From: Promethearchaeota archaeon
Lineage (GTDB): Archaea > Asgardarchaeota > Lokiarchaeia > Sigyniarchaeales > SOKP01
NCBI GenBank assembly: GCA_030606485.1
Contig: JAUWGH010000001.1
Coordinates: 240,001-272,000 of the forward strand
Direction of reading: 5' to 3'
Length of the DNA: 32,000 nt
A program made the translations under genes and the position numbers. Position 1 is the first letter of the stretch. Every line of letters starts with the position of its first letter. The notes under the pieces were generated by a model, which saw only the letters and a list, made by a program, of their open reading frames with translations, did no database searches and was not told where the DNA came from. Of the stretch, positions 3 through 3,877 are shown one piece after another.

Positions 3-413
3 GATTCTAAGACTGGCTTAACTTTTTTAAGTAAAAAGTTCTCAAAAAACTTAAATAAATTTAATTCAGATAATGAAGATTTAATTTCAGGATTCTTAAA
101 TGCTCTTAATTATTTTGTGAAAGAACTTGATTTTGAAAATGAATCAATAGAAGAAGTGAATTTTAAGAATAATAGAATTTTATATGAACAAAAAGGGCGT
201 TTAATGGCTATAGCTATTTCAAAGAAAACAGATATTGGAATTGAACGGAGATTTCTTTCTATGATTATTAATGATTTTTATCTTTCTTTTAAATTTAATA
301 TTGAAAACTTTTGTGGAGACGTGAGAATTTTTGAAAAATTTAAATCCAAATTAGATTTATATAAGATACCCAGTGTTATTCAACCAACACATTCAAAAAT
401 AATACCTGGGTAA
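3..413 (+). CDS. Longin-like domain protein, 5'-truncated by the window edge
   Basis: The frame of ORF 117..413 is open back to base 3: DSKTGLTFLSKKFSKNLNKFNSDNEDLISGFLNALNYFVKEL...IEEVNF...ILYEQKGRLMAIAIS...FLSMIINDFYLSF...FCGDVRIFEKF. This fits the Asgard longin pattern (D.KSG / LISGFL.AL..F..E / F...F). Confidence 0.7.
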   Translation, partial: DSKTGLTFLSKKFSKNLNKFNSDNEDLISGFLNALNYFVKELDFENESIEEVNFKNNRILYEQKGRLMAIAISKKTDIGIERRFLSMIINDFYLSFKFNIENFCGDVRIFEKFKSKLDLYKIPSVIQPTHSKIIPG

Positions 414-426
414 TTTTTTGATTTAT

Positions 427-1608
427 TTATTCATTATTTTTTTCTGTTTCTTTGGTTTTTATCTCATCAAATTTTTTTTCGACTGTTTTCTCGATTTGTT
501 TGCCCTTTCCTTCTATATCTGCATCAATAGATTTACGTAATTCATCTCTCTCCTTTTGTCTATCCCTATAAAATGCCTTCTCAGCAATGGTTTTTTCAAT
601 TACTCCCTTTTTACTTTCAATATCTGCTTTTATTTCAAATCTTTCCTTATCCTTTTCCTTTAATTTCTCCATTTTATATGCTTTATCGGCTATAGTCTTC
701 TCTAATTCACTTTGTTTTCCTTCTATATCAAGTTTTATATCACTACGTTGTTGGTCTCGCTCCCTTTTTCGTTCAATCATAAACTTCTTTTCATCAACAC
801 TCTTTTCAATTTCTTTCTGCGACCCTTCGATATCTGGACTTATATCTTTACGTTGTTGTTCTTGCTCTCTTTGTCGTTCAATCATAAATGCTTTCTCCGC
901 AATTGATTTTTCAATTTGTTGTCCTGTACCTTCAATTTTAGGCTTCATTGAAGCGATTTGTTTATCTCTTTCCTTTATTTTTACAAATTTGAAAACTTTC
1001 TCTTCCAAACTCTTTTCAATATTTTTTCCTACACCTTCAATATCTGTTTGTATGGCTTTACGTTGGAGATCACTTTCCCGCTTTTTCTCTATCATAAATG
1101 CCTTTTCGGCCACTTTTTCCTCAATTTCTTTTTTTACTCCTTCTATATCAGGACTTATTGATTTTCGTCGTTCTTCTTGTTCCCTTTGTCGTTCAATCAT
1201 AAAGGCCTTTTCGGCCACTTTTTTCTCAATTTCTAATCCTGTTCCAATAATTCTTGGTTTTACTGATTTTCTTATATTATCCTTTTCACGACGTATATCC
1301 ATTCGATATGCCTTATCCGCGATATTACCGGCAATTGCTTTCTCAATTTTATCTAAATCCAGCTTAATACTGGCTCTCATTTTAGCTTCTGATTTCATTC
1401 TCTCAGAAATAAAAATTTTATCAGCAACAGTTTTAGCAATCTCTTTTTTACTCTGCTCAAATGATTCCTTTCGTTTTTCTTCAGTTTTTTCTAAATATTC
1501 CCTAATCTCGTTCTTTTCTTTTTGAATGAGATTTTTAAGCATCTCCTTTTCTTTTTCGATTTCTTCCGGTGTTTTTTTATTAATATTTTCATCTTCCAAA
1601 TTTTTCAC
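427..1608 (-). CDS. Highly charged alpha-helical protein made of 35-aa tandem repeats
   Basis: 393-aa ORF with a GTG start. Residues 57-371 are nine ungapped 35-aa units (consensus IEKxIAEKAFMIERxRExDxxRKxIxPDIEGxxKx), followed by a partial tenth. Confidence 0.85.
   Translation of the reverse strand: MKNLEDENINKKTPEEIEKEKEMLKNLIQKEKNEIREYLEKTEEKRKESFEQSKKEIAKTVADKIFISERMKSEAKMRASIKLDLDKIEKAIAGNIADKAYRMDIRREKDNIRKSVKPRIIGTGLEIEKKVAEKAFMIERQREQEERRKSISPDIEGVKKEIEEKVAEKAFMIEKKRESDLQRKAIQTDIEGVGKNIEKSLEEKVFKFVKIKERDKQIASMKPKIEGTGQQIEKSIAEKAFMIERQREQEQQRKDISPDIEGSQKEIEKSVDEKKFMIERKRERDQQRSDIKLDIEGKQSELEKTIADKAYKMEKLKEKDKERFEIKADIESKKGVIEKTIAEKAFYRDRQKERDELRKSIDADIEGKGKQIEKTVEKKFDEIKTKETEKNNE
430..1440 (-). 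repeat. Intragenic 105-bp tandem repeat array (9 full units + 1 partial)
   Basis: The plus-strand word ATCATAAA(T/G)GC(T/C)TT recurs at 881, 1091 and 1196 (spacings 210 and 105). The protein period is 35 aa. Confidence 0.9.
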
Positions 1609-1707
1609 GTTCCATATTGTCTAATTAATATAAGTGATAATTAGGAATTAAATTATTTCTGTATTTAAAATGAAAATAATTCTTAATAAAATTAGGTAAA
1701 TTTAATA

Positions 1708-2448
1708 TTATTTTATCGGAATCGGTGCAATATCATCAGCTACAGAATCCATCAAACTCAATAATGTAAATTTAAGTATAAGCATTTCATTTACCTCATT
1801 CATTAATCTTATATATTGGTTAGTTTCCTTTTCTATGCTATATTCCATTATTAAATTATCAAATTCTCGAAATAATTGGAATGTTAACTCTTCTTGTTGA
1901 TTTAAATCTAATCTTTGTCTAGAAATCCACTTATCAATTCTACTTTTTATTTCAATCTCTTTATTATCTCCTAAAACATAAGATACTTCTACCTGCTCTA
2001 AATCCTCAATCTTCTTAACATAACTTAAATCAGAATATATGGGTTTTACCATCAATCCCAAATTAATAATTAATGGTTGCAATTGTAAACCTTCAAAACT
2101 CCCGGTTAAATAATCTAAAACAAAATCTTTTCGAGAAAATTGTTGATACTCAATAAATTCCTGAAGGAGCTTAAAAAGTGTTGTCTTTACTAATAGCTCA
2201 TCATATTCATTAATATTTTCTGTAGTGATTTCCAATGTTTGCTGAATACAATTATAAACTGTTTTCATAAAAGGTTTAATGGTTTTAAACATGTTAAAGA
2301 GATTAATGAATTTTAAGATTTTGTCGAGGATTGTAATTTTATACTGAGCTGAAAAAAAATATCGGTTAATAATATCTTCCAGATCAAATGACTCATCTGG
2401 AATCGAAAGAAAACTCTGTATTTCCTCAAATTTTGAATAGATCCTCAA
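1708..2448 (-). CDS. Hypothetical, predicted all-alpha protein
   Basis: 246-aa ORF with a TTG start and a GAGGA SD-like motif upstream. No recognisable motif. Confidence 0.7.
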   Translation of the reverse strand: MRIYSKFEEIQSFLSIPDESFDLEDIINRYFFSAQYKITILDKILKFINLFNMFKTIKPFMKTVYNCIQQTLEITTENINEYDELLVKTTLFKLLQEFIEYQQFSRKDFVLDYLTGSFEGLQLQPLIINLGLMVKPIYSDLSYVKKIEDLEQVEVSYVLGDNKEIEIKSRIDKWISRQRLDLNQQEELTFQLFREFDNLIMEYSIEKETNQYIRLMNEVNEMLILKFTLLSLMDSVADDIAPIPIK

Positions 2449-2551: not shown

Positions 2552-3877
2552 TTAAAATATACTTGGAATCAGAGCCTTTGAACCATGTAATATCCCAGCT
2601 ATTGCATAATATAATAATTTCCATATTGAAAAGCCGGGGGGAAATACATCGAGAGCCTTTACATCCATCAATTTAAATAAAGCGTTAATGGTTTCAGCTA
2701 AATTATTGCAATTATGCGAGAAAAACACATTTTTCTTACCGAATTCTTCCCTCAATTTTTCTCCAACCTCATCTATTGCACAAAATCCAGCTACGAGGCC
2801 TTTGGCATATCCCTCGCTTTTTAATTGTTCTATCAAATCATCATCAAAACCTTTTCCCATTACTATGAAAAATCCCCCTTTTCCTTGAAAATCCAAACTA
2901 AAAACCTGCATGGTAGTTAAAGGGTTATTTTGACAACCTTCTTTACAGCATAATTTATTTCCTTTTATAATTTTTATATCGTCTGGAAACTCTTGAAGTA
3001 AATCAGTAGGATATTTTTCTTTGTATTCATCCAAGGATTTTCCAATCACATTAATTTTACTTAAATCACCCTCTCCAAGCCCACGTTCATTTGCTATTTT
3101 CAAATGTGGAACATCATCTAGAGTTAAACCAAAAACCCTTGCACCAACCACATCAACTGAAACTGTATCTCTCCCACCAATTAAAATATTAAATTCCTTA
3201 ACGAGTTTATCCTCTAAAGCTGTTGGGGGATAATGTCCGTGAATAGTGCCCTCAATTCCATCTATAATTGTTATATCCGGCTGAATGTATTCATAAACGT
3301 CCACAATTTTTGAGTGGAGATTGTAATTATGGTCAATTCCTCGATCTGCGTGCTGTGGAAAACCCCATTGGTTTTTGATTCCTAAAGTAACACCTGCCAT
3401 GCTATGAGTTTTTAATTTAGGTATATTGATGTAGGTAAATGCATCTCTGTTTTTCATTATTTTAACAATTGTTTTAGGTAATCTGAAAGTTTTTAAAATA
3501 TATTCATTCTTTGGTTTTCCTTTAAAAGTGAAAGTTTCTGTTTTTTCCTCATCTAAATAAATTGCCTTCGCTCCCGTTTTTTTACATACTTTTCTATAAC
3601 CAGTTATGGCAAAAACTATTCTACTCATATTTCCCTGCGTTGAATTCTCCATAACATAAATTTCTTTTGCCCCAAACTCTTTAAGATATTTAATTACAAT
3701 CTCTAACACTTCGGGAGAAGTATATGCGTGCTTTTTAAAATCAATGCCATTAATTTTAATATAAACTTCTTTTGAACTTTTTAAAATGGGTTTCCCACCC
3801 TTTTCAAGATGAGAAAACATTTCTTTAACTGCGGATTCAATCCCTTGAGTCGTCTCAACAATAAAAACTTCTGGCAT
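2552..3877 (-). CDS. DUF362 family Fe-S protein
   Basis: Motifs VYIKING, IPKLKTH, TLGIKNQWG, DGIEG and DTVSVD, plus a Cys-rich C-terminal part (CCKEGC, GFC, NCN). Confidence 0.85.
   Translation of the reverse strand: MPEVFIVETTQGIESAVKEMFSHLEKGGKPILKSSKEVYIKINGIDFKKHAYTSPEVLEIVIKYLKEFGAKEIYVMENSTQGNMSRIVFAITGYRKVCKKTGAKAIYLDEEKTETFTFKGKPKNEYILKTFRLPKTIVKIMKNRDAFTYINIPKLKTHSMAGVTLGIKNQWGFPQHADRGIDHNYNLHSKIVDVYEYIQPDITIIDGIEGTIHGHYPPTALEDKLVKEFNILIGGRDTVSVDVVGARVFGLTLDDVPHLKIANERGLGEGDLSKINVIGKSLDEYKEKYPTDLLQEFPDDIKIIKGNKLCCKEGCQNNPLTTMQVFSLDFQGKGGFFIVMGKGFDDDLIEQLKSEGYAKGLVAGFCAIDEVGEKLREEFGKKNVFFSHNCNNLAETINALFKLMDVKALDVFPPGFSIWKLLYYAIAGILHGSKALIPSIF

Follow-up and report, generated by a model that had tools for sequence, protein, structure and literature searches.

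Near the start of the window, the 32,000-nucleotide stretch of Promethearchaeota DNA analysed here, a minus-strand open reading frame (427..1608) encodes a protein of 393 aa, counted from a GTG codon, that carries a long array of 35-aa repeats. The locus raises the question of what such an array does and, in particular, whether it acts as a ruler or binder of filaments such as actin, as the first-pass annotation proposed from the nebulin-like period and a [DE]xx[YF] motif, with a segmented coiled coil given there as an equally valid explanation. The complete coding sequence, whose stop codon lies at 427-429, begins with an N-terminal head (residues 1-56; 1441..1608, minus strand), a charged helix conserved family-wide in the alignment, with four invariant residues (E15, Y38, R46 and F50). 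Nine tandem 35-aa units come next (residues 57-371; 496..1440, minus strand), each consisting of a core motif, a charged spacer and then a K-P-D-I-E-G-x-G turn. In the sequence layout, a partial tenth unit starting with IEKTVEKKF and an acidic/basic C-terminal tail occupy the last residues (372-393; 430..495, minus strand). The C-terminal tails of the homologues differ from clade to clade.

The repeat architecture is real and non-random. The rows from residue 57 to residue 371 align as nine ungapped units with the core I-E-K-S-I-x-E-K-A-F-x-I-E-K-x-R-E, and the description of the array as "nine-plus" units is borne out by the 22-aa remainder, partial tenth unit plus tail, after unit 9. The [DE]-K-x-[FY] motif reported at positions 7-10 is present in 9 of 9 units, including the ADKAYR of unit 2 and the ADKAYK of unit 8, and Lys8 is the only strictly invariant column across the nine. 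The xDIEG turn described at positions 27-31 is easily recognised from unit 3 to unit 9 but degenerate in the first two units. Identity at a period of 35 reached 0.385, against a maximum of 0.185 at any period of 5-119 in 2000 residue shuffles. No DNA-level repeat was detected in the ORF by Tandem Repeats Finder, and DNA identity between units averages only ~57%, so the periodicity is a property of the protein.

Comparison with three orthologues (82-91% identity) gave a dN/dS of ~0.2 (0.19-0.25), and intact orthologues are present in more than 100 genomes. At the level of codon substitution, the gene is thus under purifying selection and encodes a real protein. The 99-bp upstream intergenic region (1609..1707, minus strand) contains a TATA-like element, TTATATTA, at ~1626-1633, approximately 20-30 nt ahead of the invariant GTG. 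In the upstream comparison, the ATTATATTT block and the GTG start were conserved at 11 loci. Since a conserved TATA-like block precedes an invariant GTG, the gene probably has its own archaeal promoter. A TTG or ATG lies nine bases after the GTG across the compared loci (TTG at 1597-1599 here, ATG in some homologues), and the true start may be either the GTG or this codon three positions downstream. The gene is single copy in the source genome (3.75 Mb, 13 contigs), where four genes of the actin family also occur (top score against Pfam Actin, 445 bits). DNA of this gene region occurs in cold-seep and marine-sediment metagenomes. Over positions 1-2600, three metatranscriptomes and a fourth run of doubtful RNA nature yielded a single 163-nt contig, which came from the run that is probably DNA.

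To describe the family motif, a profile was assembled from 220 unique repeats of 23 homologues sharing only 36-45% identity. The family unit reads I-E-K-S-I-x-E-K-A-F-x-I-E-K-x-R-E-x-D-x-x-R-x-x-[IL]-K-P-D-I-E-G-x-G-E-x. Across these repeats, conservation was highest at Ile1 (98%), Lys8 (97%), Phe10 (93%, with Tyr in 4%), Glu17 (90%) and Ala9 (88%), followed by Glu7 (83%) and Pro27 (71%), and Gly31 and Gly33 recur in each unit of the profile. Six positions per unit are 79-100% hydrophobic, and Ile1, Ile5, Phe10, Ile12, Ile25 and Ile29 are conserved. When the profile was read directly onto a 100-degree helical wheel, two faces could be assigned. I1, I5, A9 and I12 form a hydrophobic stripe at ~200-280 degrees, while K3, E7, F10, K14 and E17 fall at ~0-80 degrees, placing Phe10 opposite the stripe in a frame of Lys3, Glu7, Lys14 and Glu17. 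As judged from the profile, conservation is tied more closely to individual positions than in sequences of generic coiled-coil or ER/K composition.

The number of repeats ranges from 6 to 12 across the 23 homologues, and the inter-repeat spacing is exactly 35 in 199 of 203 cases and 32 in the other four. More distant relatives follow other periods. A uniform 37-aa spacing was observed in the G030 homologue and in metagenome fragments P0005, P0007 and P0020, while fragment P0021 has a uniform 32-aa spacing and P0002 a mixed one of 35, 32 and 36. Locus L042, the one clear homologue in the neighbouring family f2, encodes 295 aa with an IEKxIGEKAF core in six units spaced exactly 37 apart, and its linker contains neither Pro nor Gly-x-Gly. 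The exact 35-aa period therefore holds within the taxonomic family of the source genome and gives way to 37 or 32 in distant relatives. Because the same core occurs at these other uniform spacings, the conserved entity is a helix motif of ~17 residues joined to a linker of constant length within each protein but variable length between clades.

The repeats of a given protein resemble each other more than they resemble those of other genera. In proteins of other genera the repeats are 49-72% identical among themselves, whereas their identity with the repeats of the source protein is 36-44%, and almost no positional orthology of repeats is retained beyond the genus. These comparisons indicate that the repeats evolve concertedly, the arrays being homogenised or re-amplified within lineages, and the idea of old, positionally orthologous repeats was rejected on this ground. 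Given concerted evolution, uniform spacing and inter-repeat similarity are partly historical, a product of unit amplification and not of selection, which weakens the argument that a strict period implies a periodic template. A super-repeat of three units was also considered. Protein identity between units at lags 1 to 6 was 44, 42, 48, 41, 37 and 44%, and the excess at lag 3 over lag 1 (48% vs 44%) is marginal and carried by units 3 and 6 (80%).

The distribution of the family was examined by searching a profile of 23 full-length homologues against 400 Asgard genomes. Matches were found in 109 of 134 genomes of the source genome's own Lokiarchaeal family (f1), in 1 of 14 genomes of family f2, in 3 of 5 of family f20 (E about 1e-6) and, family f4 apart, in none of the remaining families. 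Within f1 the gene was not found in genera g3 and g9, nor was it detected in the two closed genomes of f2. Weak matches were also obtained in 2 of 4 genomes of family f4 (G027/G029, E = 1e-17 to 1e-19 with the full-length profile); in the loci inspected no repeat-bearing ORF corresponds to these matches, and they were not counted as members. Among the 400 genomes, the family is thus narrow, confined to one Lokiarchaeal family and present almost nowhere else. The label "Asgard-type" held up, as every one of the 28 related loci found among 185,579 species genomes belongs to a Promethearchaeota/Asgard MAG. When 1.84 billion representative proteins were searched exhaustively with HMMER, 25 matches were obtained, mostly short fragments, and every inspected one carries the same motif. 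Bacterial homologues, to which the first-pass annotation had looked as an argument against its proposal, turned up in neither collection. Lokiactin is pan-Asgard, whereas the repeat family is narrow.

The surroundings of the gene are themselves conserved. Upstream lies c4, an orphan of 246 aa (1708..2448, minus strand) with no Pfam, PDB or ESM Atlas match, and downstream the convergent c2, an orphan of ~182 aa cut by the window start (3..413, plus strand), which also occurs without the repeat gene. In ~30 loci the gene order is DUF362 protein, c4, repeat gene, convergent c2, c3, c6 and a radical-SAM/HMPTM-ribbon protein. The entire block is syntenic, unrelated and convergent genes included. 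Although c4 is conserved beside the repeat gene, it is independent of it, being present where the latter was not found (7/7 genomes of g3, 2/2 of g9 and 8/14 of family f2). At three loci of this kind c4 directly abuts c2, and in genera g3 and g9 the repeat gene is cleanly missing from between the two. The one f2 genome that carries both c4 and the repeat gene has them separated by 430 kb. An operon link with c4 and DUF362 was consequently rejected as a functional argument. In genomic context, the repeat gene is an accessory insertion into a block that is conserved without it, and for this reason its neighbours are uninformative on function. No actin-related gene was observed in the conserved neighbourhood.

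Searches for a known family were made along several routes. With hmmscan against Pfam (E ≤ 10), neither the whole protein, nor the array, nor three units gave Nebulin or any other relevant match, and Nebulin was absent from the 25 most-matched Pfam families listed for 46 four-repeat windows (E ≤ 1). The PF00880 profile, run over the whole source genome at E ≤ 10, did not match the repeat locus. Its sole match, on contig C1 with 20.3 bits, falls within a 370-aa ORF in antisense orientation and was dismissed as chance. The Pfam check thus did not support nebulin homology, and by the tests run the protein is not a nebulin homologue. The PDB was queried with the protein as well as with the profiles of the repeat and of the full-length family, and no natural protein was recovered; the only match was 8qad (E = 5.6e-4), a designed coiled-coil barrel. 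Since 8qad was designed de novo, this match reflects periodic amphipathic composition and not ancestry. The ESM Atlas gave no usable match for the repeat protein. Some homologues did produce Pfam matches (Phage_L5_gp82, UBA_SIK3, BORCS6, Entericidin and others), which were rejected as repeat artefacts because each is the sum of one short weak match per unit with no stretch passing alone. These artefactual matches differ between homologues and are absent from the source protein. Across these searches, the repeat protein belongs to no detectable known family.

Structure prediction gave helices without a fold. AlphaFold2 on the full-length alignment returned an all-helical model (pLDDT 64, pTM 0.20) of long helices with breaks at some of the turns, in which residues 14-70 form a single helix (pLDDT ~90). 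A second run, on an in-register alignment of the 46 four-repeat windows and meant to reveal inter-repeat packing, gave a short first helix and then a continuous helix over residues 29-133 (pLDDT 80, pTM 0.28). Neither the full-length nor the four-repeat model contained hairpins, a solenoid or inter-helix packing, and no compact fold is predicted for the protein. An alpha-solenoid of the TPR/PPR/HEAT type does not agree with a helix that runs continuously over three units, nor was a TPR, PPR or HEAT signal found in Pfam for the source protein or the 46 windows. A stable coiled coil or helical solenoid, named beforehand as evidence against a filament binder, was likewise not what AlphaFold2 predicted, namely an isolated long helix; these models are of the monomer, and an oligomeric coiled coil remains compatible with them. 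Charged residues account for 51% of the protein (K 19%, E 18%, R 7%, D 6%), a content that fits an ER/K single alpha-helix, but a conserved hydrophobic seam, which such helices lack, is present. Hydrophobic periodicity peaks at 5.0 residues, followed by 3.9 and 3.5. Positions 1, 11, 18, 22, 25, 29 and 32 fall on a weak stripe in the best heptad register, whose a/d occupancy is 0.46. The remark that 35 is exactly five heptads holds arithmetically in the source family, and it is no family-wide constraint, given the 37- and 32-aa variants. The 37-aa variant is free of Pro and Gly, yet 37 is not a multiple of 7.

Taken together, we tentatively favour, with less than even confidence, a lineage-specific extended helical array of two-faced motifs that serves as a multivalent scaffold on a repeating partner. 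The protein would be cytoplasmic, non-globular and all-alpha, specific to one family of Lokiarchaeales, with a 56-residue helical head followed by nine 35-residue modules. Each module would present one helix motif of ~17 residues with two conserved faces (the Ile1/Ile5/Ala9/Ile12 stripe and, opposite, Phe10); a spacer rich in Arg, Glu and Asp and a Pro-Asp-Ile-Glu-Gly turn would come after it. The chain would not fold back on itself and would form a rod or jointed rod with identical candidate binding sites spaced ~5 nm apart (35 x 0.15 nm for a helical chain). The repeating partner along which it could act as a scaffold or side-binder may be a protein polymer or a single protein present in many copies, and every module would make the same contact with it. 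We infer that the modules are binding sites and that the partner is periodic. Two arguments carry this preference. Because Ile1, Lys8, Ala9, Phe10 and Glu17 are conserved position by position across genera, each module would make the same specific contact; because no intramolecular packing is predicted, that contact would involve either a different molecule or further copies of the protein itself. On the other side of the balance we counted concerted evolution, an uninformative genomic context, the weak heptad stripe and the compatibility of the AlphaFold2 models with an oligomeric coiled coil.

The main rival to the scaffold, which we consider somewhat unlikely, is a self-assembling segmented coiled coil in which chains pair or bundle through Ile1, Ile5, Ile12, Ile25 and Ile29. 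The charged positions would set the register, and the product would be a rod or an intermediate-filament-like or crescentin-like filament needing no other partner. An all-helical protein without tertiary fold as a monomer is what such a model expects, 35 residues do accommodate five heptads, the only PDB profile match is itself a designed antiparallel coiled coil, and variable repeat number with concerted evolution is common in coiled-coil rods. However, the a/d occupancy is low and the 5.0 and 3.9 periodicities are stronger than 3.5, the Pro (71%) and Gly-x-Gly break every unit, the heptad a position 8 is Lys in 97% of repeats, and Phe10 (93%) lies off the stripe. The 37- and 32-aa relatives cannot hold a heptad register between units, and a parallel in-register dimer does not require uniform spacing. 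A charged single alpha-helix or hydrophilin-like protein, acting as a spacer, a stress protectant or an amphipathic helix array on a membrane surface and likened to the Pro-punctuated helices of apolipoproteins, would explain the repeats by easy expansion in place of site-specific binding. Its charge content (51%), the isolated continuous helix predicted by AlphaFold2, the labile repeat number, the homogenising units and the dispensability of the gene in sister genera all fit. We nevertheless judge it clearly unlikely: the conservation of Ile1, Lys8, Ala9, Phe10 and Glu17 across genera exceeds that of composition-driven proteins, only ~20% of each unit is strongly hydrophobic, a small share for a class A helix that binds lipid, and no Pfam LEA, apolipoprotein or perilipin signal appeared in the source protein or the 46 four-repeat windows.

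The remaining alternative returns to actin as a convergent nebulin analogue, with one module per Lokiactin subunit (~5.5 nm along the strand) and with Phe10 and its acidic and basic neighbours contacting actin, so that filaments are stabilised, stiffened or measured. The period of 35 (32-37 in the family) resembles that of nebulin modules, which are 31-38 aa and mostly 35 (preprint 10.1101/2021.10.06.463400, a cryo-ET study of the thin filament), although module length alone is not a specific feature. In the nebulin module, Pro occupies position 5 and SDxxYK positions 18-23 with an invariant Tyr22 (10.1101/2021.10.06.463400), and in both proteins a Pro precedes, by some 17-18 residues, an aromatic in mid-helix that has an acidic residue at -3. 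The difference of about one residue that had been noted in Pro-to-motif spacing holds, the Pro-to-aromatic distance being 18 here and 17 in nebulin. Nebulin variants with more linker residues or more Pro have been argued to keep the same physical span (10.1101/2021.10.06.463400). By analogy, the spacing variants of the repeat family could do likewise, as a fully helical 37-mer would span ~5.5 nm and 35- or 32-mers with Pro/Gly linkers could match it, which makes the Lokiactin reading appealing in its geometry. The source genome encodes Lokiactin, and no fold is predicted for the repeat protein in isolation, in line with what is reported for nebulin (10.1101/2021.10.06.463400). The niche may also be open for an actin side-binder, since the widespread recognised Asgard actin regulators are essentially profilins and gelsolins only (PMC13716822). 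Against this, the Pfam Nebulin profile went unmatched by every route, only [DE]xx[FY] is common to SDxxYK, with Phe (93%; Tyr 4%) at the place of the invariant Tyr, and the conserved contact residues D3, K11 and K30 have no counterpart. Lokiactin is pan-Asgard, while the repeat protein is restricted to a single Lokiarchaeal family and was not found in two of its genera, and no actin-related gene lies nearby. The strongly conserved hydrophobic stripe is a further difference; we know of no equivalent in nebulin repeats. We regard a nebulin analogue as improbable, and the specific proposal that a family of Lokiarchaeales independently evolved a nebulin-like jointed rod, whose modules of 32-37 residues each span one Lokiactin subunit and decorate or stabilise filaments, as decidedly improbable.

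What the analysis establishes is a genuine, well-defined orphan repeat family with a clean motif, which is experimentally tractable. A protein whose identical helical motifs recur at ~5 nm intervals could in principle decorate a cytoskeletal polymer. If it does so, it would represent a lineage-specific elaboration of the archaeal cytoskeleton and a convergence with nebulin. Were it an analogue of nebulin on Lokiactin, no earlier filament side-binder or ruler would be known from outside eukaryotes, and it would represent a convergence on the solution of ~35 residues. The restriction of the protein to a single uncultured Lokiarchaeal family leaves it with little bearing on eukaryogenesis.

Compared with known systems, the nearest parallel in layout is with nebulin, nebulette and LASP (PF00880), with which the protein shares tandem helical modules of ~35 aa (31-38 in nebulin, 32-37 here), a Pro near the helix start, the mid-helix aromatic with its acidic residue at -3, a variable number of modules and the lack of an autonomous globular fold. 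Beyond the aromatic and the missing contact residues, the motif differs from SDxxYK in having G, S, A, D or E at the Ser-equivalent position and M, R or L after the aromatic, without a conserved Lys. The repeat protein is also without SH3 or LIM end domains and without a 7-module super-repeat, which would not be possible with only nine units, and it adds a conserved Ile stripe and concertedly evolving repeats.

Tropomyosin, among the periodic coiled-coil side-binders, is elongated and all-helical like the repeat protein, and its quasi-repeat is comparable in length to one actin subunit. It differs in its continuous canonical heptads without Pro/Gly breaks, whereas the repeat protein has an a/d occupancy of 0.46 and units that are each punctuated by P-D-I-E-G-x-G. 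With ER/K SAH domains the protein shares about one half charged residues and a predicted long isolated helix without tertiary contacts. SAH domains, however, have neither a conserved hydrophobic seam nor a position-specific motif, both of which are found here together with Pro and Gly recurring every 35 residues. The designed sc-apCC-6 (PDB 8qad) is likewise made of repeated amphipathic helix-loop units of similar length; it is an antiparallel barrel, while AlphaFold2 forms no hairpins or barrel from the natural protein. Finally, GvpC of gas vesicles, though without sequence similarity to the repeat protein (Pfam found nothing), is a prokaryotic helical tandem-repeat protein of variable repeat number, whose 33-aa repeats lie on the GvpA lattice and whose period tracks that lattice.

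The repeat protein was also recovered in the neighbouring family f2, where genome G030 encodes a 295-aa homologue (L042:7030-7914, minus strand). This protein carries the IEKxIGEKAF core in six units with a strict period of 37 aa, its linker contains neither Pro nor Gly-x-Gly, and its gene neighbourhood is unrelated to that of the repeat gene in the window.

Comparison of the start region of the repeat gene (window 1597-1608, minus strand) with homologous loci revealed that the annotated GTG is invariant in 11 loci. A second candidate start, TTG or, in three clades, ATG, lies exactly three codons downstream, and the choice between GTG and TTG/ATG as the true start is ambiguous. A TATA-like box is located ~20-30 nt upstream of the GTG, so the mRNA may have no leader or only a very short one.

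Some clades (L006, L020, L033 and the proteins P0002 and P0003) share a conserved short C-terminal peptide, T-D-x-E-K-W-L-x-Q-x-K-K-x-R-K, which is absent from the window's protein and might act as a docking or membrane-binding tail specific to those clades. Two metagenome matches, P0013 and P0018, combine the N-terminal head and two repeats with unrelated sequence, TPR-like in P0013. Since each is known from a single short contig, they may be assembly chimeras instead of true fusions.

The first-pass annotation had described the period of the repeats as nebulin-like. Over the whole genome, the Pfam Nebulin model gave only one match, L041 (G000:C1:425063-425122, minus strand), at 20.3 bits, just above the cut-off of 20.1. 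This match runs antisense within an ORF of 370 aa that contains a CxxxCxxC-type motif, and it is due to chance.

Upstream of the repeat gene, a conserved block is headed by a DUF362 protein (window 2552-3877, minus strand; 130 bits), in which a Cys-containing C-terminal extension of ~190 aa follows the Pfam domain. Conservation of the orphan c4 (window 1708-2448, minus strand; 246 aa) extends across the order, and 34 of its residues are invariant among 25 sequences compared; the protein had no match in Pfam, PDB or Atlas, and occurs both with and without the repeat gene. In the convergent downstream orphan c2 (window 3-413, plus strand; ~182 aa at full length, L001:936-1481), the motif D-L-I-x-x-F-L is invariant, and strand-like stretches alternate with helix-like ones. 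Because c2 matched nothing in Pfam or PDB, we can only guess at its resemblance to roadblock/longin-type domains.
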